A stretch of DNA of 32,000 nucleotides, from contig OY776328.1 of NCBI GenBank assembly GCA_963675515.1, forward strand, positions 240,001-272,000, written 5' to 3'. Below the pieces are notes generated by a model, which was not told the DNA's origin, did no database searches, and saw only the letters and a program-made list of their open reading frames with translations. Below, one piece after another: positions 3,365 through 23,503 of the stretch; within the stretch, counting starts at the first letter, position 1, and every line of letters begins with the position of its first letter. A program made the translations under genes and the position numbers. The DNA comes from Coprobacillaceae bacterium (GTDB lineage: Bacteria; Bacillota_I; Bacilli_A; Erysipelotrichales; Coprobacillaceae).

Positions 3365-4255
3365 ATGGAGTTTCAAATTGAGAATTTGCATAAAAGTTTT
3401 GGAAGCAAAAAGGTTTTGCAAGGGGTTGACTTGCATGTGGCCTCCGGAGAAGCGTTGGGACTTCTTGGCCGCAATGGTGCCGGTAAGACGACAATCATCA
3501 GGATCATCCTGGATTTGTTCAACGGTGATCAGGGTGAAATCCTGATTGACGGAAAAAAGGTCGACCGCAATAAAATCAAGATCGGTTATTTGCCCGAAGA
3601 GCGAGGTCTATATCCCAAAAAGAAAATCTCTGAACAGCTTATCTATTTTGGCATGTTGAAGGGGATGACCAAAAAGGAGGCCTTGAATTCAATTAACCAC
3701 TACCTGGACCGCCTGGATATCATGAACTACAAAGATGCCAAGCTTGAAACATTGTCGAAGGGTAATCAACAGAAGATACAATTGATAGTTGCCTTGCTTG
3801 ACGATCCTGATATCGTGATATTGGATGAGCCTTTTTCCGGACTCGATCCGGTTACCGCGCAGATGCTCAAAGATATTGTGGTCGAGCTGATCGGGAGGCA
3901 AAAGATTGTTATTTTTTCCTCACATCAGATGAACTATATCGAAGAGTTCTGCAACAACATTGCTGTCTTGAACAAAGGTAGAATTGTCCTTGATGGAAAA
4001 ATTGATGAGATAAAGAGGTCTTACCCGCGCAACAAATTCAAAATAAAAACTGTGGATAATGACCTGGCAGCCACCAAGATATCCTTTCCAGCCAAGGTTG
4101 CTGGCCAGAATATAATAGTCGAACTGGAAGATGAAAGCCAGAGTATTGACTTGTTTAAGCAACTGGCATCAACAGATATCGTGATTGAGGGGTACAATGT
4201 CATTGAGCCTACCTTGAATGATATTTTTGTGGATTATACCAAGGAGGGGATTTAA
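3365..4255 (+). CDS. ABC transporter ATP-binding protein (ABC-2/NatA-like)
   Basis: Walker A GRNGAGKTT, signature LSKGNQQK, Walker B IVILDEP. Followed directly by a permease gene. Confidence 0.9.
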   Translation: MEFQIENLHKSFGSKKVLQGVDLHVASGEALGLLGRNGAGKTTIIRIILDLFNGDQGEILIDGKKVDRNKIKIGYLPEERGLYPKKKISEQLIYFGMLKGMTKKEALNSINHYLDRLDIMNYKDAKLETLSKGNQQKIQLIVALLDDPDIVILDEPFSGLDPVTAQMLKDIVVELIGRQKIVIFSSHQMNYIEEFCNNIAVLNKGRIVLDGKIDEIKRSYPRNKFKIKTVDNDLAATKISFPAKVAGQNIIVELEDESQSIDLFKQLASTDIVIEGYNVIEPTLNDIFVDYTKEGI

Positions 4256-5485
4256 ATGAGACAGTTTCTAGTTGTTTTCAAACACGAGTATATGACTTTT
4301 TTGAAAAACAAGGTATTTGTAGTGATGTCGGTAATTGGAATTGTCGGTATCCTTGTCCTGACCTCAATTCCCCGGTTCGCTGCGGCATTCGACTTTGGAT
4401 CAGGCGGTTCAGTCGATTCCGCTGAGAACATCGCCTTGGTGGACATGACCGGAAATGGAGAAACTACAAAGGCAATTATGGAAAGCGCCCTTGGTAATGT
4501 GGAAATCAGTTTAGAATCATATTCACGGACTGATCTGGAGACAAAGGTCAAGGAAGGCACTTATGATTGTGGCTTCATTATTGACAGTATCGACCATTAC
4601 AGCTATATTGTCAACAGCCAGGAAATGTATGATACCAAAAACCAGATCATGCAGGAGATCCTGAAAGTGCAATATCAAAGCTACCTGATGACACAAAACG
4701 GATTAAGTGTCGAGCAGGCCGGCAGTGTTATAAATGCAACAGTCACAGGCGATATCGTGAATATCGGGGTTGACCAGGCTCAGAATTTTCTCTTCACCTA
4801 TATTATGATCATGTTCTTGTATATTGTAATCATGATATACGGCCAGTTGATTGCCACAAATGTTGCCACTGAAAAGACATCGCGTGCAATGGAAATGCTT
4901 ATTACAAGCGCCAAGCCCAAAAGTCTGATGTTTGGAAAAATATTTGCCTCTGGATGTGCCGGTTTGACCCAGCTTATCTCGATCATAGGTGCCGGTTATT
5001 TGGGCTACCTTATCAACAAGGAATATCTGATGGAAGGATCATTTCTGCAAATCCTGAATGTATCCATACCAACCTTGATATTCGGGGTCCTGTTTTTCCT
5101 GCTTGGCTATTTTCTATACGCATTTCTTTATGGTGCCATCGGTTCGACAGTTTCAAAAATCGAGGACATTTCTCCTGCTGTCATGCCAGTGACGATATTA
5201 TTTGTCATCGGATTCATGATCACAATTTCCGGAACGAGTTCGGGAGATGTCGATTCAACTTTGGTCTTTGTGAGTTCGTTTATTCCTTTTTTTGCCCCTA
5301 TGGCAATGCTTGCAAGAATCGGGATGAGTGTCGTTCCGCCTTACCAGATCGCTATCACAATCGCATTGTTGTTGGCGAGTACCGCACTGATCGGATACAT
5401 GGCTACAAAAATCTACCGTCTTGGAGTCATGCACTATGGAAATCGTCTGAAAATCAAGGACTTGTTCAAGGCATTGAGGGGCTGA
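4256..5485 (+). CDS. ABC-2 family transporter permease (NatB-like)
   Basis: 409 aa. One N-terminal TM segment, a large extracytoplasmic loop, then about 5 C-terminal TM segments. Start is adjacent to the ATPase stop. Confidence 0.78.
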   Translation: MRQFLVVFKHEYMTFLKNKVFVVMSVIGIVGILVLTSIPRFAAAFDFGSGGSVDSAENIALVDMTGNGETTKAIMESALGNVEISLESYSRTDLETKVKEGTYDCGFIIDSIDHYSYIVNSQEMYDTKNQIMQEILKVQYQSYLMTQNGLSVEQAGSVINATVTGDIVNIGVDQAQNFLFTYIMIMFLYIVIMIYGQLIATNVATEKTSRAMEMLITSAKPKSLMFGKIFASGCAGLTQLISIIGAGYLGYLINKEYLMEGSFLQILNVSIPTLIFGVLFFLLGYFLYAFLYGAIGSTVSKIEDISPAVMPVTILFVIGFMITISGTSSGDVDSTLVFVSSFIPFFAPMAMLARIGMSVVPPYQIAITIALLLASTALIGYMATKIYRLGVMHYGNRLKIKDLFKALRG

Positions 5486-6847: not shown

Positions 6848-6885
6848 TCTCTATCTCCTTTAGACTATTCTTTTAAAAAGTATTC

Positions 6886-7003
6886 CGGCTTTGCTTCAAC
6901 GTTCTGCAACCTTCCCGGGAAAATCCCAGTGGTATTCAGCAGTTCTCCACATTACGGCGGCGGATCCGCTCAGGTTTCACACCTGATTCCAATTTTAAAA
7001 GGT
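6886..7003 (-). ncRNA. Cobalamin (B12) riboswitch
   Basis: The minus strand reads ...TGGAATCAGGTGTGAAACCTGAGCGGATCCGCCGCCGTAATGTGGAGAACTGCTGAATACCACTGGGATTTTCCCGGGAAGGTTGC. This contains the conserved GGAA..GGTG.GAA.CC...C.G..CCGCC.CCGTAA core and a B12-box-like CCACTGGG...CCGGGAAGG. A TATAAT (minus, 7015-7010) sits just upstream. Confidence 0.8.
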
Positions 7004-7055
7004 GAAATCATTATAGCGAATAATCGTTTCAAAAACAACAAATAACATAATATAT

Positions 7056-8030: not shown

Positions 8031-9955
8031 TATGATATTTTTGCTCCATTTGGAAGCTTGTCAAGCATTGGAACTTCGATCAACTTCTTTTGCACACCTG
8101 CTAGGATCATCCCTTGTGACTCGACTCCTCTAAGCTTGACCGGCTTGAGGTTCTTGACAACAATGACTTTCTTACCGATAAGATCTTCTGGCTCATAGAA
8201 GTCCGCAATGCCCGAAACAATCTGTCTTGTCTGGTCACCGATATTTATCTGGCTGACAAGCAATTTTTTTGCGTCAGGATGTTTCTCGCATCTTTCAATA
8301 GTCCCAACGACCAGCTCGATCTTTTTGAAATCGTCGATTGTGATCAGATCTTCTTCAGGCTGCGCAATTGGCTGTTTGCTTTTGTTCAACGCCTCAACTT
8401 TTGCATTGATTTCTTTCGGGTCGAGACGGGCGAACAGCACTTCAGGGTTCTTGGTTACGGTATTGCCAATTTCATAGCCGCCAAATTCGCTGATGCTTGA
8501 GAAATCGCGGTTGGTTGTATTTATCTGGTCAAGGATTGAAGTCGCACTTGATGGTATGTATGGGTACAATGCAATCGCACTAAACCGAATGGCCTCAATC
8601 AGATTGTAGATCACCGTTTGCAAACGGTCAGATTGGCTTTCGTCTTTGGCAAGCACCCAAGGAGTTGTCTCGTCGATGTATTTGTTTGTCCGGCGCAGGG
8701 CAACCATTATTTCATCAAGAGCCTTGGCGATTTTGAAATCGTCAGCGTATTCCTTGACTTTGGTCACCATGGCAGTCATCGTGTCTTTCAGTTCCTGGTC
8801 GACCGGCTCATCAACCTGAGGGTTTCCAACAACACCGTCGAAATACTTGTTGGCCATCGCAATCGTCCGATTCACGAGATTACCCAAGGTGTTAGCGAGG
8901 TCAGTGTTGATCTTTTCAATTACCAGTTCCCAAGTCAATGACCCATCATTGTCATAAGGTATTTCCGAAAGGACATAGTAACGGGTTGCATCAACGCCGA
9001 AGATGTCAACCAGATCATCGGCATAAATTACATTTCCCTTGGATTTCGACATTTTCGAATCTCCCTGAAGAAGCCAAGGGTGACCGAACACCTGTTTGGG
9101 CAGCGGGATATCCAAAGCCATCAGCATGATTGGCCAGTAGATGGTATGGAATCTGACAATGTCCTTACCGATAATATGGACATCGGCTGGCCAGTATTTC
9201 TTGTACAATTCGCCATGGTTGCCGTCCACGTCATAACCCAAACCAGTGATATAGTTCGATAGGGCATCGATCCATACATAGACAACATGCTTTGGATCAA
9301 AGTCGACAGGAATCGACCAGGTGAATGATGTCCGGGAAACGCAGAGGTCCTGGAGACCTGGCAAAAGGAAGTTGTTCATCATTTCGTTTTTGCGGGATAC
9401 CGGTTGGATGAATTCAGGATTGTCGTTGATGTGCTTGATCAAACGATCTGCGTACTTGGAAAGCTTGAAGAAGTACGCTTCTTCCTTGGCGTCTTCAACC
9501 GGACCGCCACAATCAGGGCAAGCTCCGTCATTCAACTGGCTTTCAGTGAAGAAAGATTCGCAGGCTTTGCAATATTTCCCTTCATAATGTCCCAGATATA
9601 TATCGCCTTGGTCATATAGTTTCTTGAAGATCTTCTGAACCTGCTTTTCGTGATATTTATCAGTTGTTCTGATAAAGTAATCATAAGAAGTGTCCATCCG
9701 GTCCCATATTCTTCTTACATCTTTGGCGATTTCGTCGACAAATTGTTGGGGTGGGACGTTTGCCGCTTTGGCCTTGTCCTCTATTTTTTGTCCGTGTTCA
9801 TCGGTTCCGGTCTGGAAATAGACGTTGTAACCTTCCTGGCGCTTGAACCTTGCAATGGCATCGGCCAAGATGATCTCGTATGTGTTGCCGATATGCGGTT
9901 TACCTGAAGTGTAGGTAATCGCGGTTGTTAAATAATAGTCATTAGCTGTTTTCAT
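8030..9955 (-). CDS. metG: Methionine--tRNA ligase with C-terminal tRNA-binding (EMAP/Trbp111-like) domain
   Basis: HIGH-type motif (KPHIGNTYE), KMSKS, a Cys-knuckle (CKACESFF...CPDCG), and a C-terminal tRNA-binding domain. 641 aa. Confidence 0.97.
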   Translation of the reverse strand: MKTANDYYLTTAITYTSGKPHIGNTYEIILADAIARFKRQEGYNVYFQTGTDEHGQKIEDKAKAANVPPQQFVDEIAKDVRRIWDRMDTSYDYFIRTTDKYHEKQVQKIFKKLYDQGDIYLGHYEGKYCKACESFFTESQLNDGACPDCGGPVEDAKEEAYFFKLSKYADRLIKHINDNPEFIQPVSRKNEMMNNFLLPGLQDLCVSRTSFTWSIPVDFDPKHVVYVWIDALSNYITGLGYDVDGNHGELYKKYWPADVHIIGKDIVRFHTIYWPIMLMALDIPLPKQVFGHPWLLQGDSKMSKSKGNVIYADDLVDIFGVDATRYYVLSEIPYDNDGSLTWELVIEKINTDLANTLGNLVNRTIAMANKYFDGVVGNPQVDEPVDQELKDTMTAMVTKVKEYADDFKIAKALDEIMVALRRTNKYIDETTPWVLAKDESQSDRLQTVIYNLIEAIRFSAIALYPYIPSSATSILDQINTTNRDFSSISEFGGYEIGNTVTKNPEVLFARLDPKEINAKVEALNKSKQPIAQPEEDLITIDDFKKIELVVGTIERCEKHPDAKKLLVSQINIGDQTRQIVSGIADFYEPEDLIGKKVIVVKNLKPVKLRGVESQGMILAGVQKKLIEVPMLDKLPNGAKIS

Positions 9956-10011: not shown

Positions 10012-10262
10012 AATAAAAAAAAGTACCAATTAAAGGACGAAAATTCCGCGGTACCACCTTTATTATACGTATCCGTATCTCTTGAAGCGTTAACGCCGCC
10101 AACGTTTATTTCTACATATCGAAATAACTGCTCCTGAACCATTCGACTATATCTGCCTGTCAGTTTCCACCAGCCACTGACTCTCTAAAAGGCACTTGAT
10201 AGCTTCTTTCAATCACCGCATTTTCCAGTACATTTTAACGCCTGAAGCCGATTTTGTCAAAC
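10012..10262 (-). ncRNA. T-box leader (probable Met specifier) upstream of metG
   Basis: The minus strand contains AGAGAG (GA motif), CTGGTGGAAAC (stem I distal region), an AUG in a plausible specifier context (TCGAATGG), and the conserved T-box AAAGGTGGTACCGCGG (10061-10046). A hairpin and a T8 run (terminator, ~10060-10012) follow. Confidence 0.8.
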
Positions 10263-14731: not shown

Positions 14732-16243
14732 TGTATGCCGGGCATGGCATATATCTAGGTGGTGAAAGTCCACTGTGGGGGTGACGTCGCAACTGCCAAC
14801 CACTAGCCAATATCAAGGGTGTCCATCGTGAGGTGGAATCTGAAAGAAGATGGAGGCAAAACCCTGGTCCGAGGAACACGAATCACATCAGGCATGTAAT
14901 GGGGACGAGCGTGCAAAACAACGCAAAGTCATAAGAGGTTGCGGAATGATACTATTACATGTAAATGTGGCGGATATATGGGGTGAAATAGATATGACCT
15001 TATCCCGGGAGATCTTGCGAGGGAGCAATCCTAGTAACAACGAATCGCAAGAAGTCAGCAGACGTCGTAGTAGCGAAGAAGTGGCTGTAATGGTCATGGA
15101 GTGAAGGACTGAATAAATCTATCAGTTATTAAAATTAGGCTTGATTTCATCACGCGAAAACGCAAAGACAGTCGAACACACTAGTAAAGCCCGAAAGAAG
15201 AATGTAGGGAAAGTGAGCCTGATGAATAGCGAAAACAATGGAGGTAACGGAAATATGAAAACTGATAACGAATTACTGGAACAAATGCTTAGCCATACCA
15301 ATCTCAAACAAGCGTATGTACAAGTTAAACGAAACAAAGGTGCATGCGGAATTGATGGTATGGATGTCTACCAACTTAAGGGATATCTAGATGAACATCT
15401 GGATGAAATTAAGGCAAGCATAATGAACCGCACGTATAAACCACAACCGGTTAGGAGAGTGGAAATACCAAAAGCTGATGGTGGAACAAGAAATCTAGGA
15501 GTGCCTACAGTCATCGATAGATTCATTCAGCAAGCTATCGCCCAGGTATTAACACCAATCTATGAACCAATCTTCAGTGACAACAACTATGGTTTTAGAC
15601 CCAATAGATGTTGTGAAATGGCAGTTATCAAGGCATTGGAATACATGAACGAAGGATTCCAATGGGTCGTGGATATTGACTTGGAGAAGTTTTTCGACAA
15701 TATCAACCACGATAAACTTATTACATTGGTGATGAAGGATGTAAAGAGCGGTGAGATTGTATCGCTTATTAGAAAATTCCTGGTAAGTGGAATTATGATT
15801 GACGATGAATATAAGGAATCTATAGTCGGTACTATGCAAGGTGGTCCGTTAAGTCCACTACTATCCAATATATTTCTTAATGAATTGGACAAGGAAATGG
15901 AAGCTAGGGGGTTACACTATACACGTTATGCCGATGACTGTATGATTTTCGTTGGGAGTAGCAAAGCAGCTGACAGAGTCATGGCATCAATAAGCAAATT
16001 CATCGAAACCAAGCTAGGCCTGAAAGTCAATATGACCAAAAGCAAAGTTGCAAAACCCAACGACATAAAGTATTTGGGATTTGGATTCTACTATGATACT
16101 TTCAACCAGCTTTGGAAAGCAAAACCGCATGCCAAATCAATAAAGACACTTAAAGAAAAATTGAAGGAATTGACTAATCGAAGTTGGTCAATTCCCTGGG
16201 ATTATAGATGCTTAAAGATACGGCAACTAATAGTCGGGTGGAT

Positions 16244-16251
16244 AAACTACT
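16244..16251. repeat. 8-bp target-site duplication of the IS256-family element (left copy)
   Basis: AAACTACT at 16244-16251 is repeated at 17619-17626. Confidence 0.8.
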
Positions 16252-17618
16252 GATAGTGTAAAATATTTTGTGTAAATAGGATTTCAACTTTTAAGTAGAA
16301 AAAAGGGTGCAACCCTTGTAAAATTAGTTCGACGAAAACAATTTACGAGAGGATTACACCCATGAACTATTTTACAACAACTTTACTTAGAAGTCTAATA
16401 TCAAATGATAATAATCTGCCAGCTTTTGAGCAAGTAGTCTCAGAACTTTTCCGGAGCGAATTGGAGAATGCCATCAACGATATTTTGAAGTCCGAACTTA
16501 CCGTTTTTCTTGATTATGAGAAATATGACCGATCTGAGAATTCGAATTCAAGAAATGGCTATTACAACCGCGATTACAACACTAAATATGGTGTGTTGAA
16601 CCTGCGCATACCACGTGACCGTCAAGGGGACTTTGATTCACCGCTGGTCCCTAAATATCAGCGAAACGATCTAGCTACCACCAACACTGTCATCGATCTA
16701 TTTAATTCAGGGATGACCAACAGCGACATTGTAAAAACTGTTGAATCAATCTACGGCAAGAAATACTCCAGACAGACAGTTTCCAATATTACTAAGGAAA
16801 TAGTTGCCCATGTTGAAGCCTTTAAAAATCGCCCGTTAAACAAGCAATACGCAGTTGTTTATACCGACGCTACAGTTATTCCTTTGCGGCGCGATACCGT
16901 GTCTAAAGAGGCGGTTCATATCGCTATAGGAGTGACTCTAGAGGGAACAAAGGAAATACTAGGATATTCAATTGCGCCAACCGAATCCGCAACAACATGG
17001 CGGGAACTGTTTGAAGAGTTCAAAACACGCGGTTTGGAAGCGGTTGCGTTATTCTGTACTGACGGGCTAACCGGTGTTGAGAACGCCATTGAAGACACTT
17101 TTCCGATGGCCAAAATCCAACGTTGCCTGGTGCATGTTTCAAGAAACATTACAGCCAAAGCAAGAGTGAAAGACCGTAGTGAGATTGCACAGGATTTTAA
17201 GCGAGTTTACAATTGCGAAACTGAAAAAGCGGCGAGTGAAGAGCTTAAGGAGTTCATCACCAAATGGGGGCAAAAATACCCAAAAGTGGCAAAATCACTT
17301 GAAGAGAATTCAAATCTATTCACTTTCTATTTGTTCCCTGAATCGGTACGCAAGAGCATATATACAACAAACCTGATCGAAGGTTTCAATAAACAGCTCA
17401 AGCGGAAAATCAAGGCTAAAGAACAATTCCCAAATGAGGAAGCTGTGGAGAAATACATCGTTTCGCAATTTGAACAATATAACCAAAAATTCATGAACCA
17501 TACCCATAAGGGATTCAAAGGAATATCTTACGAACGTTGGTTCCTGCTAGAAGAAGAATAACCAAGATGATCAGTAAGAACTAATTTTACAAATTTACAC
17601 AAAAATATTGACACTACC
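16252..17618 (+). mobile_element. IS256-family insertion sequence (1367 bp)
   Basis: Imperfect 26-bp terminal IRs: GATAGTGTAAAATATTTTGTGTAAAT versus the reverse complement GGTAGTGTCAATATTTTTGTGTAAAT (21/26 match). Single transposase ORF. 8-bp TSD. Confidence 0.85.
16362..17561 (+). CDS. IS256-family (mutator-type) transposase
   Basis: 399 aa. Typical IS256 pattern: RNGYYNRDYNTKYGVLNLRIPRDRQG, and a DDE triad in the contexts YTDAT, CTDGL, NLIEGFN. Confidence 0.92.
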   Translation: MNYFTTTLLRSLISNDNNLPAFEQVVSELFRSELENAINDILKSELTVFLDYEKYDRSENSNSRNGYYNRDYNTKYGVLNLRIPRDRQGDFDSPLVPKYQRNDLATTNTVIDLFNSGMTNSDIVKTVESIYGKKYSRQTVSNITKEIVAHVEAFKNRPLNKQYAVVYTDATVIPLRRDTVSKEAVHIAIGVTLEGTKEILGYSIAPTESATTWRELFEEFKTRGLEAVALFCTDGLTGVENAIEDTFPMAKIQRCLVHVSRNITAKARVKDRSEIAQDFKRVYNCETEKAASEELKEFITKWGQKYPKVAKSLEENSNLFTFYLFPESVRKSIYTTNLIEGFNKQLKRKIKAKEQFPNEEAVEKYIVSQFEQYNQKFMNHTHKGFKGISYERWFLLEEE

Positions 17619-17626
17619 AAACTACT
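17619..17626. repeat. 8-bp target-site duplication of the IS256-family element (right copy)
   Basis: AAACTACT, identical to 16244-16251. Confidence 0.8.
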
Positions 17627-17862
17627 ATAAAATAGGTAACTTCAAAGGTACGTGCGAAAACCTCGACGGGTGGATTAGATTTAGAATAAGAATGTATCTC
17701 TGGAAGAAATGGAAAACCATTAAGAACAGGAGAAAACAACTTAGAAAACTTGGAGCAAAACGATGGCAATATGAATCATGGTCAAACTCTAGGAAATCAT
17801 ACGCCCGGTGTGCTAGCACATTTCTTAAGACAAGGGTCACAAACGAGTTACTCAAAAGAAAA

Positions 17863-17887
17863 GGCCTAGTATCACTACTAGACCAAT
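17863..17887. repeat. Long (22-25 bp) target duplication of the IS1634-like element (left copy)
   Basis: GGCCTAGTATCACTACTAGACCAAT is repeated exactly at 19910-19934. The last 3 nt are ambiguous between the IS end and the duplication. Confidence 0.85.
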
Positions 17888-18077
17888 GGAGTCAACTTTA
17901 GGAACTTTTTCCTAGTTAGCTCTTTTTATATCTATATGCATCTTAAATATAAATCTCTGACGCTTAATTCAAGTTTAGTTTAAATCTTCACATGAAAAAA
18001 AGCGCATAATCCCCCATAGAATTTTAGCGTTTTTTTAAAATTGCGATATTCATGTTATAATGATAGTGTATTCTTGA

Positions 18078-19616
18078 CTACGGGGCAACTGTTCTCATGA
18101 CGCCTTTGATGGTTTGAATTTTTGGATAGTTTCGCCCATCAAGCGAGAATCGGTAGTAGAATCCACTAGGAACTACTCTGCCCCAACGTTGACTGTGCCT
18201 GTTCTTGCGGACGGGCACTTTTATTGTTTGGGCTACGGCAACTATTTGCTTAATCCTTTTTCGCATCAGTGTTTTCTTATGACTGTAAAACGGATACAGC
18301 AGGTTGTTCTCCATCAGCAGATTATGTAGTTGTTTGATGTTGACCCGGTACTGGATATTATCTTCATCATTTTTATCGGAGGTTTCTTCACGATTAGGCC
18401 GGCGGCGGTGCTTGCCCGGGTGCCTGCTAAGATACCTGTCGATTTCTTTCCTGATCACTCCCAAGATATTGTAAAGCACGATTTTGCCATAGATGCAGCA
18501 TTGGGATACGGTGTCGGATTCGCTAACGTGTCGTTCCAGTTCCATATCGGTTTTTAGCGTTTTATATGCCACCTCAATATTCCAACGCTTTGAATAGAGC
18601 TCGATGATATCCTCGTGGCTGAACTCTTCTTTTGACAAACTGGTAAAGTATGTTATATCTGATTCAATGGACTCCCCGAATTTATTACTGTATGCATAAG
18701 TAAATTTTACGACTCTTATCTTCACTTTGGGGTTATCTTCTCTGATTTTACGGGCTTCATCAGAGAACCGGAATCTTTTCCGCCATAGCCTGTCAACATC
18801 TACCTCGATCCACTCATCATTTGAAGTCATTTCACTGACTTGCTTTTTAAAGAAGTTGGATTTGGCACGGATGCAATAATCAAATCCTAAGTGCTCAAGA
18901 TGACTGATAAGCTCGACTGAGCCATAGTAGCGATCAGCAAGATAAATCACTTTCTTGCCAGCCAACAGATCCCCACAACTATAAAGGTGTTGGAAGGCAA
19001 GTGGAATTTCTGAGTAAGGGGCAGGTCTCATCATGAAATCCAAAAAGATGCCGTTGGTGACGTCATATAGTCCAGCTGATTTGGACAGAACTTTCTTAAC
19101 ATCGAAAATATCTTTGACGTACTGGTTTTTCCAAAAGCCGAAGTTATAAATATTGTGGATGCTATAGGGAATTTCTAGAAAGGTCCCATCTTCAGCTAAA
19201 AGCGTATACCCTTTATATGTCTTAGGCAGCTTGCTTTGATAGAACTCCTTGGCAAACTCTTTGAATAAATATCTGAATACTGATGGATTGAGTTTTTTGA
19301 TATCGACGTTAAGAGCTTGCTTGGTGATCCTTTTTTCCAAGCGGTCAGTGGAGCAGAAATACTTGGTCAAGTCCGTGTTAGTGTCCTTAGAATTTCTAAA
19401 AACAAAGTAGAGAATTACATCCCTGAAAGTCATAGTCCGATTGCGAGTAAAATTAGAACTAAAGTTCCTAGATAAATTACGAGTGATGTCAGAAGACAAG
19501 ACATCCGCGAAAGAATTGAAGAAATCTGTCATCTTATTAGTCTTAACTACATTATTCATCATCGTATACCAACCTTGGTTTCTTTTTAGCGAAAGCCGCT
19601 TTGAGGAAAGGAACAC
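18078..19616 (-). CDS. IS4/IS1634-family DDE transposase, main ORF (catalytic part)
   Basis: 512 aa. IS4 signature Y-x2-R-x3-E-x6-K in LYSKRWNIEVAYKTLK, plus YLADRYYGS. Confidence 0.85.
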   Translation of the reverse strand: MFLSSKRLSLKRNQGWYTMMNNVVKTNKMTDFFNSFADVLSSDITRNLSRNFSSNFTRNRTMTFRDVILYFVFRNSKDTNTDLTKYFCSTDRLEKRITKQALNVDIKKLNPSVFRYLFKEFAKEFYQSKLPKTYKGYTLLAEDGTFLEIPYSIHNIYNFGFWKNQYVKDIFDVKKVLSKSAGLYDVTNGIFLDFMMRPAPYSEIPLAFQHLYSCGDLLAGKKVIYLADRYYGSVELISHLEHLGFDYCIRAKSNFFKKQVSEMTSNDEWIEVDVDRLWRKRFRFSDEARKIREDNPKVKIRVVKFTYAYSNKFGESIESDITYFTSLSKEEFSHEDIIELYSKRWNIEVAYKTLKTDMELERHVSESDTVSQCCIYGKIVLYNILGVIRKEIDRYLSRHPGKHRRRPNREETSDKNDEDNIQYRVNIKQLHNLLMENNLLYPFYSHKKTLMRKRIKQIVAVAQTIKVPVRKNRHSQRWGRVVPSGFYYRFSLDGRNYPKIQTIKGVMRTVAP

Positions 19617-19749
19617 TTTCTCCGTCTACAAGACCGAAATTAATAAGAACGCGGTGTTTAGATACACCATTTTCACGATAAGACTCAACAAGTGCACAAA
19701 AATAGGTATTATCTTTACCTTTATTGTTCTTAACAGCTCTGACAAACAT
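19552..19749 (-). CDS. N-terminal segment of the IS1634-like transposase, in a different frame (frameshifted or two-ORF arrangement)
   Basis: The 65-aa ORF MFVRAVKNNKGKDNTYFCALVESYRENGVSKHRVLINFG... resembles the conserved N-terminus of IS1634-family transposases. It overlaps the main ORF by 65 nt, around an A-rich tract (GCTAAAAAGAAACC). Confidence 0.55.
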   Translation of the reverse strand: MFVRAVKNNKGKDNTYFCALVESYRENGVSKHRVLINFGLVDGESVPFLKAAFAKKKPRLVYDDE

Positions 19750-19909
19750 AATATCGCCTCTTTTCTTAACTACATTATATCACTATAATGGCTAAATATC
19801 AGCAAATATTACTTATAATCTTAACTACAAATTCAAATCAAATATCGAACAGTTGTCAAAAACATCAAAAAAAGAGCCGACTTAAGGAATTTCTTAAGTT
19901 GACTCCATT

Positions 19910-19934
19910 GGCCTAGTATCACTACTAGACCAAT
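19910..19934. repeat. Long target duplication of the IS1634-like element (right copy)
   Basis: Identical to 17863-17887. Confidence 0.85.
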
Positions 19935-19966
19935 ATCAGTTAAAACATATTTCAGTATAGATTTAA

Positions 19967-19998
19967 ACCGCCGTATGCCGGCCGGCTTGTACGGTGGT
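19967..19998 (+). ncRNA. Group II intron domain V (class C type)
   Basis: ACCGCCGUAU-GCC-GGCC-GGC-UU-GUACGGUGGU. This folds as a 10-bp lower helix, a 2-nt 3' bulge, a 3-bp upper helix and a tetraloop. CGC occupies the catalytic-triad position. Length is 32 nt. Confidence 0.8.
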
Positions 19999-19999
19999 G

Positions 20000-20019
20000 T
20001 TATCCCGATATCGGGATAA
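20000..20019. repeat. Perfect 20-bp palindrome at the left RIT/intron junction
   Basis: TTATCCCGATATCGGGATAA. It consists of two inverted copies of the 9-mer TTATCCCGA, which also recurs inside both RIT inverted repeats. Confidence 0.9.
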
Positions 20020-20023
20020 TCAA

Positions 20024-20107
20024 ACTTATACCGACTTTTGGATTATCCCGACAAATATGTATTTTTGAGGGATAGTCTCTTTTTGTATTATTAAAAGTCG
20101 GGATAAT
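20024..20107. repeat. RIT left terminal inverted repeat (84 bp)
   Basis: Matches the reverse complement of 23367-23450 at 79/84 positions by hand alignment. Confidence 0.9.
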
Positions 20108-20147
20108 TTTATTTTCAGTCTATAATGTAGTTAGGAGGTAGTTTGAA

Positions 20148-21377
20148 ATGAAAAATTTGAATAGTATCGACGAATTAGTTCAGCTTGCTTTAAATAACCT
20201 GAAGTCTCAAGGCTATAATGAACTTACCATTCAGGCCTACGAATCCAGCTACTTTAACCCCATTTTGAAAAGATATTCTGACTTAAACCAAATCAACTAT
20301 AGTCAAGAAATTATGGATTCACTGCTAAAGCTCTATCTTTCGCAACTTCAAAACAAAATTATTAGTAGGACCACCTATAATAAAAGAGTGCGTGGCGTCT
20401 TAATGATCACCGAACTTAATGATTTCGGTTCCTTCAAGTGGAAAGTTTTCACATTTAAGGATGAAATCCCTATATCATCAGGGTTCAAAATGACAATAAA
20501 AGAATATTTGAAAAATAGAGATGTATCTATTAGGACCCTTCAATTTGAAGAGCGAATCCTATATTTATTTTCAAATTTTCTAAACAATCATGATATTTTG
20601 CAACCGAAATTAATAAGTACTAGCGATATAGTGGAATTTATTAAAATCATCTCTAAGGATAACCCAAAATCCATGGATAGAATACTCACTTGTTTGAAAA
20701 AATATTTAGTTAATTTGTACAGAAATAAAAAGATTGATTTTGATATAAGCTCCATCGTTTCCTTTGGTAAAATACGAGACAGGGCATTATATCCGCCGAT
20801 AGATATGATTGATCTTGTAGGAATTTTAAATTCAATTGATAGGGAGACACCTACCGGAAAAAGAAATTATGCGATTATAATATTGGGTGCAATGACAGGG
20901 CTAAGAGCTGGAGATATAGTACGGATTCAGCTTGAAGATATTGATTGGAAAAAACGCAAATTAAATATAGTTCAGGGGAAAACAAATAGTCCCATATCAG
21001 TGCCATTAACTGAGAGTGTCTGTAATGCAATTGCGGACTACATTCTAAATGGAAGACCCAAAACAGATGATAATAGTATTTTTATAAGATCCATAGCTCC
21101 TTTTACGGGGCTTAAAGACGGCTGTTCTATCGCTTCTTTTTTTAGAAGGTATCTATTAAAGGCTGGAATTGAACCATCCCTTAAAACCGGGAACACTTTC
21201 CACTCTATTAGGCGGATGTTTGGGACTCAATTGATTATCAACGGTGTTCCGGTTACAATGATTGCCCAGCTTTTGGGTCACCAATCAGTCATACCTACTA
21301 AGCAATATATTTCACTTGATGTTGAGGGTTTGAGAAAGTGTGCGTTATCGATGGAAACACTTGATGGTAGATTATGA
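20148..21377 (+). CDS. ritA: Tyrosine recombinase, first of trio
   Basis: 409 aa. Catalytic residues in context: GLRAGD (R), GKTNS (K), HSIRR (H-x-x-R), GHQS (H), KQYISL (Y). Preceded by GGAGG. Confidence 0.8.
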   Translation: MKNLNSIDELVQLALNNLKSQGYNELTIQAYESSYFNPILKRYSDLNQINYSQEIMDSLLKLYLSQLQNKIISRTTYNKRVRGVLMITELNDFGSFKWKVFTFKDEIPISSGFKMTIKEYLKNRDVSIRTLQFEERILYLFSNFLNNHDILQPKLISTSDIVEFIKIISKDNPKSMDRILTCLKKYLVNLYRNKKIDFDISSIVSFGKIRDRALYPPIDMIDLVGILNSIDRETPTGKRNYAIIILGAMTGLRAGDIVRIQLEDIDWKKRKLNIVQGKTNSPISVPLTESVCNAIADYILNGRPKTDDNSIFIRSIAPFTGLKDGCSIASFFRRYLLKAGIEPSLKTGNTFHSIRRMFGTQLIINGVPVTMIAQLLGHQSVIPTKQYISLDVEGLRKCALSMETLDGRL

Positions 21378-22324
21378 AATTCATATATGAATATATCCCC
21401 GAAATGATTAATTATCGAATTGATTTAGGGTATTCGTTGCAACCAACTTCTTGGTATCTTAAAGATTTTTCCAGATACTTGAAGAAAAATTTTCCCAGTG
21501 AAACAATGCTTACTCAAGAAATGATCATGCCTTGGTGTGTGCAAAGGAAAACTGAGCAGGCGTGCAGTTTTCGATCTAGAATGTCATCAATAAGACAATT
21601 TACACTTTACCTTTTTGCGAACGGAGCTTCCAATTTTGTACTTGATTTGAATTTCTTACCTAAAATCACAAGATATGTACCCTATATATTTACAAACATG
21701 GAGCTTAAAACCATTTTTGAAATGGCTGATAGTAAAAAATATATCAAACCGATTACAGCTAAAAATAGAATCATATCTGTAATCTATCGATTGATATACT
21801 TTTGTGGTCTTCGGCCAAACGAAGGTCGTGAAATAATGAAAAAAGATTTGGACTTGGATAACGGAACTATACTTATTAGAAAAAACAAAAATCATAAGGA
21901 ACGTCTAATTCCAATGGCAGCTGATGTAACAGATATGATGCGCGAGTATATCGATGAAATGAAGTTAATATTTCCAAATACTGATTATGTTTTTCCATCT
22001 CCAACCGGGCTTCCATATCATTCAAAATGGTTAAGGACGGAATTCTTGAAGATTTGGGATGAGATAAAACCCGAGGGTGGTAGAGCTCGTGTAAGAGTAT
22101 ACGATTTACGTCATCGCTGGGCGACAACTGTCATGATGAAACTCTTAAACGATGGTGAAGATTTATATTCATTGCTTCCCTACATGAGTGCCTATATGGG
22201 TCATTCCAATTTCGAAGACACGGCTTATTATATTCACTTACTACCAGAGGAATTAATTAAATCATCTGAAGTTGATTGGGAAAGGTTTTCCTCAATCATT
22301 CCTGAGGTGTCTAAGTATGACTGA
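21374..22324 (+). CDS. ritB: Tyrosine recombinase, second of trio
   Basis: 316 aa. Catalytic contexts: GLRPNEG, LRHRW, GHSN, AYYIHL. ATGA start/stop overlap with the first gene. Confidence 0.8.
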   Translation: MKFIYEYIPEMINYRIDLGYSLQPTSWYLKDFSRYLKKNFPSETMLTQEMIMPWCVQRKTEQACSFRSRMSSIRQFTLYLFANGASNFVLDLNFLPKITRYVPYIFTNMELKTIFEMADSKKYIKPITAKNRIISVIYRLIYFCGLRPNEGREIMKKDLDLDNGTILIRKNKNHKERLIPMAADVTDMMREYIDEMKLIFPNTDYVFPSPTGLPYHSKWLRTEFLKIWDEIKPEGGRARVRVYDLRHRWATTVMMKLLNDGEDLYSLLPYMSAYMGHSNFEDTAYYIHLLPEELIKSSEVDWERFSSIIPEVSKYD

Positions 22325-23366
22325 AAATTCATTATGTTTCTTCAAAATGATTAGAGATTATTTTGAGTCTTTCTTACCAAAACAAAAAGGAAACAGCTTC
22401 AACACAATCAAATCCTATAAAATCACTATGAATCAATTTCTAAAACATGCATGTAGCGCCAATAAAATCAAACTATCTGAATTTTGCTTCGAGATGACCT
22501 CGGTTAAGCTGCTTGAGAATTTTTTGGATGACGGTGAGCAATATTCCGGGTGGTCCTGCAGTACTAGAAATCAGAAACTGGCAGCCATACGTTCGTTTTA
22601 CAAATATGTTGCCTCTCGTAATATTTCTTTAATGGCATATTACCAAGAACTACTTGCGGTCCCAATGAAAAAGATGTCCAAGAATAATCAGATTGAATAC
22701 TTCTCCGAAAATGTTTTAGAAACATTACTTAGGCAGCCAAACACAAAAACAAAAAAAGGAATACGGGATTTGGTTTTCATGATACTAATGTATGACACTG
22801 GAGCTAGAATTCAGGAAATTTTGGATCTCAAAATTGGAGACCTATTCCTATTTAGTGAAGTCCCGTACGTGAAACTAACTGGAAAGGGCAGTAAAGTAAG
22901 ATTAGTCCCAATTATGGAAAAAACGGTAAACCACTTGAAAAATTATCTATCGATATTTCACTTAAAATCAAAAGACGATAGCTTCGTTTTTTGTTCAAAA
23001 CGAAAGGAAATCATCAGTCAACTGTCGCCAGACGCTGTTCAAAAATTTATTGATAAATATTGTGCATCCGCTCATGATGTAGATGAAGAAGTACCTATTC
23101 ATATTTATCCGCATATGTTCCGCCATTCTAGAGCCATGCATTTATATCATGGTGGAATGCCGCTACCACTTATTTCCGAATGGCTTGGACACGCGCAAGT
23201 TTCTACAACAATGGAATTCTATGCGCAGCCAACATTAGAAATGAAAAAACAGGCAATTGAGCAGGCTACAGAAGCAATTAGCCCCTTAATAAATATTTCT
23301 AATAAATACAATCTGGATTTTGAAAATGATGAAGAACTGATCAAAAGGCTTTATGGATTGATATGA
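22317..23366 (+). CDS. ritC: Tyrosine recombinase, third of trio
   Basis: About 349 aa from the ATG at 22317, which overlaps the second gene by 8 nt. Catalytic contexts: TGARIQE, FRHSRA, GHAQVSTT, EFYAQ. Confidence 0.8.
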   Translation: MTENSLCFFKMIRDYFESFLPKQKGNSFNTIKSYKITMNQFLKHACSANKIKLSEFCFEMTSVKLLENFLDDGEQYSGWSCSTRNQKLAAIRSFYKYVASRNISLMAYYQELLAVPMKKMSKNNQIEYFSENVLETLLRQPNTKTKKGIRDLVFMILMYDTGARIQEILDLKIGDLFLFSEVPYVKLTGKGSKVRLVPIMEKTVNHLKNYLSIFHLKSKDDSFVFCSKRKEIISQLSPDAVQKFIDKYCASAHDVDEEVPIHIYPHMFRHSRAMHLYHGGMPLPLISEWLGHAQVSTTMEFYAQPTLEMKKQAIEQATEAISPLINISNKYNLDFENDEELIKRLYGLI

Positions 23367-23450
23367 GTTATCCCGACTTTTAATAATCCAAAAAAGGACT
23401 ATCCCTCAAAAATACATAATTGTCGGGATAATCCAAAAGTCGGTATAAGT
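23367..23450. repeat. RIT right terminal inverted repeat (84 bp)
   Basis: Reverse complement of 20024-20107, with 5 mismatches. Confidence 0.9.
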
Positions 23451-23455
23451 GGTGT

Positions 23456-23503
23456 GAGAGGTCGAAAATAAATAGGGAAACTATTTATTTTCTCCTACTC
23501 GAT
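23456..23503 (+). ncRNA. Putative group II intron domain VI and 3' end
   Basis: The helix is GAGAGG..G-AAAAUAAAUAG-GGAAA-CUAUUUAUUUU-C.CCU-A-CUC. An unpaired A at 23497 is the 7th nucleotide from a terminal ...GAU (AY) at 23503. Confidence 0.55.

Follow-up and report, generated by a model that had tools for sequence, protein, structure and literature searches.

A palindrome carried at one end of a recombinase-in-trio element nested in a group II intron, and its proposed role as a double recombination site

Introduction

The 32,000-nucleotide (nt) stretch analysed here (the window; positions 240,001 to 272,000 of contig OY776328.1, assembly GCA_963675515.1, Coprobacillaceae bacterium) contains a recombinase-in-trio (RIT) element with long inverted repeats at both ends, and a perfect 20-base-pair (bp) palindrome (PAL) that lies just outside one of these repeats. 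How an element with mirror-image ends comes to carry a palindrome on one side, and what the palindrome does when the element moves, is the question that this locus raises. From the comparison of occupied and empty sites, the palindrome is a part of the element and travels with it. With a probability of roughly 0.6, we propose that this conserved sequence is not itself the crossover core and would instead supply two back-to-back recombination sites, and that a circular form of the element would integrate via one of the two adjoining 6-bp spacers.

To our knowledge, RIT elements occur widely among bacterial phyla, no one has yet reproduced their movement, and the need for three recombinases is unexplained. 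The elements have been known since 2009 (Van Houdt et al. 2009/2012), and the features of their ends were judged by these authors not to fit core and arm sites; in the table of a 2023 review, the target specificity, empty site and movement of RIT elements are given as 'not tested' (PMC10214605).

The 9-mer array and the extent of the insertion

Positions 20000-20107 of the window are the left end of an intact RIT element, which is an ordinary member of the RIT family (coordinates of all features are collected in Table 1). The 9-mer TTATMCCGA has nine exact matches in the window, compared to a mean of 0.45 and a maximum of three in dinucleotide shuffles. Eight of these form the end arrays and stand where an earlier note, made from the letters of this DNA, had placed them, i.e. 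at 20000 (+), 20011 (-), 20026 (+), 20043 (+), 20098 (-), 23368 (+), 23423 (-) and 23440 (-); the ninth (16859), within the gene of an IS256-type transposase, looks like a chance match. The outer and inner 9-mers of a repeat face each other as described in that note, with 53 nt between the arms, and the palindrome (TTATCCCGATATCGGGATAA, 20000-20019) is indeed perfect and confined to the left end: at the right end, the repeat stops at ...TCGGTATAA (23440-23448) and is followed by GTGGTG and TGAGAGG.

The palindrome begins at the boundary of the insert, with 20000 as the first inserted base, since intact introns read ...ACGGTGGTG immediately followed by TGAGAGG. Empty sites were sought by scanning viral contigs for the joined flanks of the window, and at least 122 matches in at least 120 viral contigs represent intact homologous introns with a single GTGGTG between domain V (D5) and TGAGAGG, and without PAL. 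The 3' ends of these introns read ...AACCGCCGTATGCCGAACGGCACGTACGGTGGTG directly followed by TGAGAGGTCG-hairpin-CTCCTAC TCGATT, and the flanks in the window fit them exactly; therefore, the insertion comprises 20000-23454, i.e. PAL (20 bp), an inner spacer (6 bp), the RIT proper (3423 bp between the terminal 9-mers) and a second GTGGTG (6 bp). The possibility raised in the earlier note that the palindrome is a piece of the uninterrupted intron is contradicted by its absence from these at least 122 introns. A scan of the viral contigs for the RIT repeat end gave no match.

Spread of the palindrome and choice of targets

At least 120 metagenome loci (cited below by L-numbers) contain the exact 20-mer, in unrelated targets and nearly always beside one RIT inverted repeat, as does one viral contig; the counts given below over 126 occurrences, 81 junctions and 72 ends rest on the matches listed in this survey. 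For 87 of the 126 occurrences, a RIT-type 9-mer lies 6 bp from PAL on exactly one side. The loci span very high to low G+C content, and the identity of their Rit proteins to those of the window is often as low as 20-30%. When PAL, inner spacer, RIT and one 6-mer are deleted, the open reading frames (ORFs) of IS66-family transposases (L029, L114, L115) and of a DUF222 protein (L036) are restored, which confirms a 6-bp duplication at insertion.

A second copy closely related to that of the window was found in L004 (a metagenome contig from ENA); its RIT of 3423 bp is 94.9% identical without gaps, and lies in a different intron and gene neighbourhood. Written in the orientation of the intron, this locus reads D5-GTTTGA-PAL-TCAAAC-[ritC...ritA]-GTTTGA-D6 (D6, domain VI). 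The palindrome is thus on the D5 side in both loci and next to opposite gene ends, with the same inner spacer (TCAAAC).

Such comparisons bear on the explanation that PAL is a landing pad resident in the target, either as part of the intron or as the footprint of an earlier element, beside which the RIT inserted. Solo palindromes without RIT do exist, some of them at the same intron position and with 6-bp direct repeats (L052, L061, L017/L066/L125), as would be expected for a landing pad. However, the intact introns lack PAL, and PAL is found in unrelated targets (IS66-family transposase genes, DUF222, other protein-coding genes); further, a landing pad predicts that the inner spacer equals the outer block, which is the case in none of the 81 junctions (direct identity never above 4/6), and the window and L004 share their inner spacer despite different introns. 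We therefore regard a target-resident palindrome as highly improbable.

All relatives with a RitB at least approximately 47% identical to that of the window, and with readable ends, are inserted between D5 and D6 of group II introns. Within this clade, which includes the element of the window, the introns entered at the D5/D6 junction belong to several structural classes. For other RIT lineages, insertion is into conserved coding motifs within mobile elements, for example at the DNN codons and the CxAH motif of IS66-family transposases (L029, L037, L071, L114, L115), at the GG(I/V)ISPxLAN motif of a group II intron reverse transcriptase (L271) and in DUF222 (L036); serine-recombinase and IS3 OrfA-like genes were recognized as targets by eye, and the loci listed for coding-motif targets also include L020 and L072/L093.

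End architecture in related elements

The ends of the compared elements follow one layout, i.e. target, 6 bp, PAL, 6 bp, the repeat (9-mer, 17-bp step, 9-mer, inverted 9-mer), ritABC, the mirror repeat, 6 bp and target. The distance from PAL to the terminal 9-mer (site 1) is 6 bp in 72/72 non-redundant ends, sites 1 and 2 start 17 bp apart in 71/72, and the inverted inner 9-mer lies 72-73 bp from site 1 in 43/63. The consensus of the 9-mer over RIT ends is TTAT[G/C]CCGA. This conservation at related ends, which the earlier note had put forward for examination, and the fixed spacing make it very likely that the 9-mers are recombinase-binding sites, as had been supposed. Site 1 differs from the PAL arm in 61 of the 72 ends, which argues that the palindrome is inherited as a sequence of its own rather than derived from the repeat; its de novo formation from the repeat ends at each insertion was thereby ruled out.

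The one-sidedness of the palindrome is real, and the rule in the RIT family as compared here: as read from the junctions, PAL is at one end only, and its side relative to the target is invariable. All 11 matches to a D5 profile place D5 immediately 5' of PAL; this nhmmer profile was made from 39 distinct D5 sequences of intact introns and is narrow, so that divergent introns are missed, and for these Rfam and reading by eye were used. The orientation of Rfam domains D1-D4 or of D5 agrees in L263, L100, L123, L078, L068, L113, L073 and L004, and in IS66-type targets PAL always abuts ...GTTGTTGNNN. The gene end beside PAL is not fixed (ritA in approximately 20 loci, ritC in approximately 24).

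The latter observation also bears on a mainly regulatory or structural function of PAL (an operator, a transcription barrier or a site for a host factor) with no direct role in strand exchange. The palindrome has the appearance of a protein-binding sequence and is located upstream of ritA in the window; however, a promoter-proximal operator would not stand beside ritC as often as beside ritA, and the position of PAL is linked with the 6-bp blocks and with one side of the target. We give this explanation the least credence of those considered.

As a sample unbiased with respect to PAL, loci were also picked by RitB homology. Where both ends are readable (window, L004, L001 and L253), PAL or a symmetric variant is present at one end, and L263 has a variant at its readable ritA end, where PAL and the repeat are apparently separated by 8 bp rather than 6 bp. 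No half-PAL was found at the 11 far-type junctions of this sample, which all read repeat-6 bp-D6. The variants (Table 1) are always perfectly symmetric, both arms changing together. A complete plasmid of Mesorhizobium huakuii, with a RitB 23% identical to that of the window, has the same layout with a different arm motif: repeat(C)-GCATC-[AAATGTG TTTGAG CACATTT]-GATGC-flank at one end, and flank-GGATGC-repeat(A) at the other. Many Logan contigs of about 3.3-3.4 kb (e.g. L003, L270) end inside the repeat with identical inverted termini, which represents an assembly break, and provide no junctions.

Six-base-pair blocks

For the comparison of the 6-mers, each locus was oriented as target-X-PAL-X'-repeat...repeat-far-target. 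X is the reverse complement of X' in 45/81 junctions, and 6-PAL-6 is then a perfect 32-bp palindrome; otherwise, X and the reverse complement of X' agree in 5/6 positions (13 junctions) or 4/6 (8 junctions), or are unrelated (2-3 of 6; 15 junctions). In a set of approximately 25 complete elements, each of the three 6-mers is in some loci the one that deviates, so that all three patterns of mismatch occur: all three 6-mers agree in L004, L014, L020, L029, L053, L071, L084 and L115; the far block equals the reverse complement of X' and differs from X in L045, L072/L085, L093, L113 and L114; X equals the reverse complement of X' and differs from the far block in L007; and X equals the far block and differs from the reverse complement of X' in the window, L037 and L107. 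The inner spacer of the window, TCAAAC, is the complement of the target block GTTTGA in L004. To judge from these patterns, the behaviour of the 6-bp blocks resembles that of crossover (coupling) sequences.

Each repeat of the P0016 family is accompanied by a constant 6-mer, CAGAAC on the ritA side and GTGGTG on the ritC side. The intron target block is GTTCTG in L253, with PAL next to ritC, and GTGGTG at the left end of L254, with PAL next to ritA; judged by their junctions, these are exactly the two products that would be expected from one circle. A contig of 3484 nt (L256; Logan SRR21159516_194376) closes on itself with a 30-nt terminal overlap (1-30 and 3455-3484), and its closing path, repeat(C)-GTGGTG-PAL variant-CAGAAC-repeat(A), is the predicted circle junction. 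This contig represents either an excised circle or tandem array, or an artefact of a k=31 assembly graph. Eight contigs similar to L256 were reported.

The PAL-repeat spacer also receives other insertions: an IS1595-like insertion sequence (ends TTGGGGGTATCCATTTAACCGGAG...) lies exactly in this 6-bp spacer, with the 6-mer duplicated (L075 2908-4021, GACGCG), and the same was observed in four loci with different spacers (L075, L076, L104, L016), which suggests that another element inserts preferentially in the spacer or core.

The earlier note had seen in the palindrome itself the shape of a complete core site, with a central region such as GATATC; in this model, arms of 7-9 bp would enclose a 6-bp overlap (GATATC), and strands would be exchanged inside PAL. 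This reading has in its favour that PAL is a strongly conserved, perfect palindrome of two recombinase-type 9-mers, and that the central GATATC is 6 bp long and palindromic. However, exchange inside PAL would leave a half-PAL at each junction, and PAL is never split: neither the 11 far-type junctions nor the right end in the window have a half-PAL. Further, the site-specific duplicated sequence is the variable 6 bp that flank PAL, the centre of PAL itself varies (TA or AT), and the ATAA/TTAT arm ends, which face the overlap in dif-type sites, point away from the centre in PAL. Hence, this part of the earlier interpretation was not upheld, and we consider it very unlikely.

Proposed mechanism

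In the mechanism that we favour, PAL would represent two outward-facing recombinase-binding arms, each of which, together with the adjacent 6-bp block and the terminal 9-mer of a repeat, would form an Xer/dif-like core (TCGGnATAA-N6-TTATnCCGA). The excised circle would read repeat(ritC side)-N6-PAL-N6-repeat(ritA side), with PAL common to two mirror-image cores. On integration, a single one of these spacers would undergo a tyrosine-recombinase crossover with a 6-bp target sequence, an event favoured by identity of spacer and target and tolerant of mismatches. The spacer used would become the 6-bp repeat that brackets the insert; the unused spacer would stay, together with PAL, at one end, on a constant side of the target, and the core used would determine whether PAL comes to lie beside ritA or ritC. 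The unused spacer would then be a heritable record of an earlier site, and TCAAAC in the window would point back to a site which had GTTTGA as its target block, as is the case in L004. The second and inner 9-mers may serve as accessory sites, the inner one overlapping the -35 region of the likely ritA promoter.

Such a circle accounts for the presence of PAL, intact, at one end only, for the 6-bp duplication and for either gene orientation; the target polarity would be fixed because spacer and target 6-mer align in one direction only. It also accounts for mirrored spacers where homology was used, and for mismatched 'fossil' spacers after mismatched events.

Several points weigh against this proposal. 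The position of the crossover is deduced from comparative junctions only, and the survey was for the exact 20-mer (at least 120 loci listed), so that the frequencies are biased. In the window, both outer blocks are GTGGTG and the inner spacer is different, which is not the product of a one-step mismatched exchange; this pattern would need either mismatch repair or a donor circle with GTGGTG already in place, which a further copy in the genome, for example, could have supplied. It is best explained by a hop from a second intron of this genome whose target block is likewise GTGGTG; the genome does contain further RIT copies. Solo palindromes with 6-bp direct repeats require recombination between sites with unrelated spacers. 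The contig L256 is possibly a k=31 graph artefact, as the 32-nt 6-PAL-6 sequence is common to two genomic junction types. Finally, the symmetric PAL variants and the usually perfect 32-bp 6-PAL-6 would also fit a hairpin-based step.

In such a telomere-like step, PAL would have originated, by replication or fusion, from the tip of a covalently closed hairpin that the recombinases form in the manner of telomere resolvases, and the mirrored 6-mers would arise by fold-back and not by homology-guided choice. The perfect 32-bp palindrome in 45/81 junctions and the symmetry of every PAL variant fit this explanation, as do the folding of single-stranded PAL, which is better than that of shuffled sequences (-9.2 kcal/mol, z = -3.0), and the copies with no PAL or two PALs between inverted paralogous flanks, one of which is located in a complete plasmid; Nielsen et al. 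have observed exonuclease-protected RIT DNA with no detectable circle junctions, and proposed hairpins (PMC5737581). However, the palindromy ends after the 6 bp, beyond which target and repeat differ; 36/81 junctions are not mirrored, and their mismatched spacers match other known target 6-mers; a tip of 2 nt is sterically unlikely; and L256 joins the ritC-side to the ritA-side repeat via PAL with two different spacers, unlike a fold-back product. As the circle model covers both gene orientations and the fixed target polarity without hairpins, we hold a hairpin step to be unlikely.

More tentatively, and with clearly less than even confidence, the favoured mechanism might be carried further to a 'two-address' site, in which the spacers of the two dif-like cores of PAL would act as independent heritable labels, copied from earlier targets, and the identity of spacer and target would decide the site and orientation of insertion. 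The core that survives in the resident element would keep recombining with other copies of the target (introns, transposase genes) and thereby rearrange other mobile elements of the host, and the three recombinases would share the work, dividing among them the PAL arms, the arms of the terminal repeats, and accessory or target DNA.

Rearranged and aberrant forms

Besides complete elements, solo palindromes with 6-bp direct repeats were found in L052, L056, L061, L074 and L117, and one between inverted paralogous flanks in L064. Copies without PAL and with inverted paralogous flanks are L248 and L271, the latter from a complete Bacillus plasmid, and contigs with two palindromes are L048, L063, L102, L027, L254 and L255. 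In the double- and zero-PAL copies, the two flanks represent the same half of paralogous target genes, inverted relative to each other. Under the circle mechanism, one full core (20011-20034 in the window) would remain after integration, and solo-, zero- and double-PAL forms would arise when this core recombines with a second target or with the far junction.

An origin of the double-PAL contigs and of the zero-PAL L248 as fold-back artefacts was considered; not all of them can be dismissed in this way, as the flanks are paralogous rather than identical, and not all zero- and double-PAL forms are artefacts, since a complete plasmid is the source of L271. Assembly chimeras between two copies may account for some of the metagenome cases. 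Contig ends need care: at 1-24 of L255, an Illumina adapter (ttcagacgtgtgctcttccgatct) is fused to the middle of PAL, which is a read-through artefact.

Other unusual arrangements comprise a second RIT in opposite orientation directly after a truncated ritC (L263, 5790-8954), two RITs on one contig (L058), and a degenerate copy (L268, 3395-3486) that lacks the sequence from site 2 of the ritC-side repeat through the right arm of PAL, as if direct 9-mers had recombined.

Genes of the element and putative promoter

The unit carries genes for three recombinases only, and neither a single integrase with an excisionase nor conjugative or mobilisable cargo. Catalytic box II motifs and the tyrosine are present in all three products (RitA, HSIRR...GH...QY; RitB, DLRH...GH...YY; RitC, HMFRH...GH...FY). 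The catalytic domain of RitA begins at residue 227 (Pfam), and RitC matches Pfam Phage_integrase (2.9e-31) and has a SAM-like N-terminal domain; the length of 349 amino acids (aa) for ritC matches the gene call in L004. The sizes of RitA, RitB and RitC (409, 316 and 349 aa) are within the archetype range of 315-410 aa (PMC10214605). By tblastn, the gene order A/B/C is assigned consistently in about 50 related loci, and 487 RitB homologues were found. The arms of the inverted repeat (20024-20106 and 23368-23450) are 83 nt long and 95% complementary.

Copies at different sites and the existence of empty sites indicate that the RIT is mobile. On the same 2.88-Mb contig, the 90% cluster of RitB contains a second full-length copy and two fragments; a RitB search of the genome contigs gave two distant loci only.

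A promoter had been presumed upstream of ritA in the earlier note, and its -10 box (TATAAT) is present where it had been placed; however, a consensus scan of 19900-20250 found no full sigma-70 promoter. The TATAAT sequence is located 9-14 bp past the inner 9-mer in the window, L004, L003, L248, L253, L263 and L270, and by this conserved distance the inner 9-mer covers the -35 position. Autoregulation through the inner 9-mer at a putative -35 is therefore plausible, the promoter itself being proposed from the conserved -10 box only.

Table 1. Features of the RIT element, its palindrome and the interrupted intron in the window, and palindrome variants in other loci
Feature	Position	Strand	Basis or remark
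Intron domains D1-D4	14822-15109	+	Rfam matches
Domain V (D5), CGC triad; left target flank	19965-19998	+	nhmmer profile; alignment with intact introns
Left 6-bp block GTGGTG, target copy	19994-19999	+	last D5 bases and linker; recurs at 23449-23454
PAL, TTATCCCGA-TA-TCGGGATAA, two outward-facing arm 9-mers	20000-20019		survey of the exact 20-mer (at least 120 metagenome loci, one viral contig)
Inner 6-bp spacer TCAAAC	20020-20025	+	not complementary to flanking GTGGTG; may be a 'fossil' coupling sequence
Proposed complete dif-like core TCGGGATAA-TCAAAC-TTATACCGA	20011-20034	+	candidate, read from the sequence and compared with dif
Left inverted repeat	20026-20106	+	site 1, 20026-20034; site 2, 20043-20051; inverted inner site, 20098-20106
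-10-like TATAAT	20121-20126	+	14 bp downstream of the inner 9-mer
ritA	20148-21377	+	409-aa tyrosine recombinase with long N-terminal part; Pfam Phage_integrase 4.4e-27
ritB	21374-22324	+	316 aa; 4-bp overlap with ritA; Pfam Phage_integrase 3.4e-22
ritC	22317-23366	+	approximately 349 aa from in-frame ATG at 22317; 8-bp overlap with ritB
Right inverted repeat	23368-23448	-	inner site, 23368-23376; site 2, 23423-23431; terminal site 1, 23440-23448
Right 6-bp block GTGGTG, second target copy, no PAL	23449-23454	+	far-type repeat-6 bp-D6 junctions in 11 other loci
Domain VI and intron 3' end (TGAGAGGTCG-hairpin-CTCCTAC); right target flank	23455-23498	+	collinear with at least 122 intact intron 3' ends
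PAL variant, TTATCCCGA-AT-TCGGGATAA	L001 (Bullifex porci), 8073-8092		
PAL variant, TTATCCTGA-AT-TCAGGATAA	L253 (P0016 family), 5074-5093		
PAL variant, TTATCCGGA-AT-TCCGGATAA	L263, 2616-2635		

Host intron and neighbouring features

When the RIT inserted between D5 and D6, its host group II intron had already been disrupted by other elements. The intron (14745-23500 of the window) represents a nest of insertions: an IS256-type element at approximately 16252-17618, with an 8-bp duplication (AAACTACT) and its transposase at 16362-17561, which interrupts the ORF of the reverse transcriptase; a maturase remnant (17608-17901) after this element; and an IS4-type element (17888-19909; transposase 18078-19616, minus strand) with unusually long direct repeats of 25 bp (17863-17887 and 19910-19934). 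Upstream in the window, and unrelated to the RIT, are a cobalamin riboswitch (6859-7048, minus strand) and a T-box leader (10030-10225, minus strand), which are consistent with a low-G+C Gram-positive host.

Significance

The proposed role of PAL provides a testable account of RIT movement. It defines substrates, i.e. a 44-bp double core (9-6-20-6-9) with accessory sites at fixed spacing, and natural targets, i.e. ...ACG-GTGGTG-TGAGAGG at the D5/D6 junction of the intron and the DNN codons of IS66 transposases, and it makes explicit predictions on the positions of strand cuts and on the role of the 6-bp blocks. If the spacers steer integration, the local choice of target would be partly written in DNA, which would be of interest for genome engineering. 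PAL is also a cheap marker for RIT ends and footprints in genomes and metagenomes, and it reveals entire RIT lineages that have specialised in nesting within other mobile elements.

In the literature searched, with Ricker et al. 2013 outside the comparison, there is no description of the one-sided PAL, of fixed 6-bp spacers with their 'memory', of target polarity or of the D5/D6 target, and the 18- or 20-mer of PAL is in none of the papers. Within this scope, and apart from one vague remark of 2012, the end architecture and the model appear to be new.

Comparison with known systems

With the known RIT elements, that of the window shares the apparent order ritA-ritB-ritC with overlaps of 4 and 8 bp and the catalytic motifs in all three products, and also the length (approximately 3.4-3.5 kb), the inverted repeats at both ends, the occurrence of several copies per genome and the insertion in mobile elements.

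Telomere resolvases (TelK, TelN and ResT) use tyrosine-recombinase chemistry on a perfect palindrome, with a 6-bp stagger around its centre. In contrast, the RIT palindrome is only 20-32 bp long and is located inside a chromosome; the likeness lies in the palindrome itself.

In Tn916, the flanking blocks may mismatch and be carried over from the previous site. Such short 6-bp blocks, which need not match and are carried along, are a feature that RIT elements share with Tn916/CTnDOT and with Tn554 and the SE elements, the latter two of which carry 6 bp of donor flank to the new site (PMC10214605). Unlike these systems, RIT elements have no Xis-type gene, have long inverted repeats and three 6-bp positions instead of two, with a conserved palindrome between two of the 6-mers, and occur in either gene orientation at a polar target.

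The proposed RIT core resembles most directly in its layout the sites of XerC/XerD, and of IMEX such as the CTX phage: dif sites read ...ATAA-N6-TTAT... (in E. coli, GGTGCGCATAA-TGTATA-TTATGTTAAAT; PMC3025954), and inverted arms that likewise face a 6-bp centre are present at 20011-20034 of the window. Rit proteins have been classed with the Xer-like 'simple' tyrosine recombinases (PMC8138268). In contrast to XerC/XerD-dif, the recombinases are the element's own and are three instead of two, the arms are 9 bp long, and the targets are not dif and have no arm-like sequence; the centre varies, apparently inherited from earlier sites, and two cores would be fused back to back through PAL.

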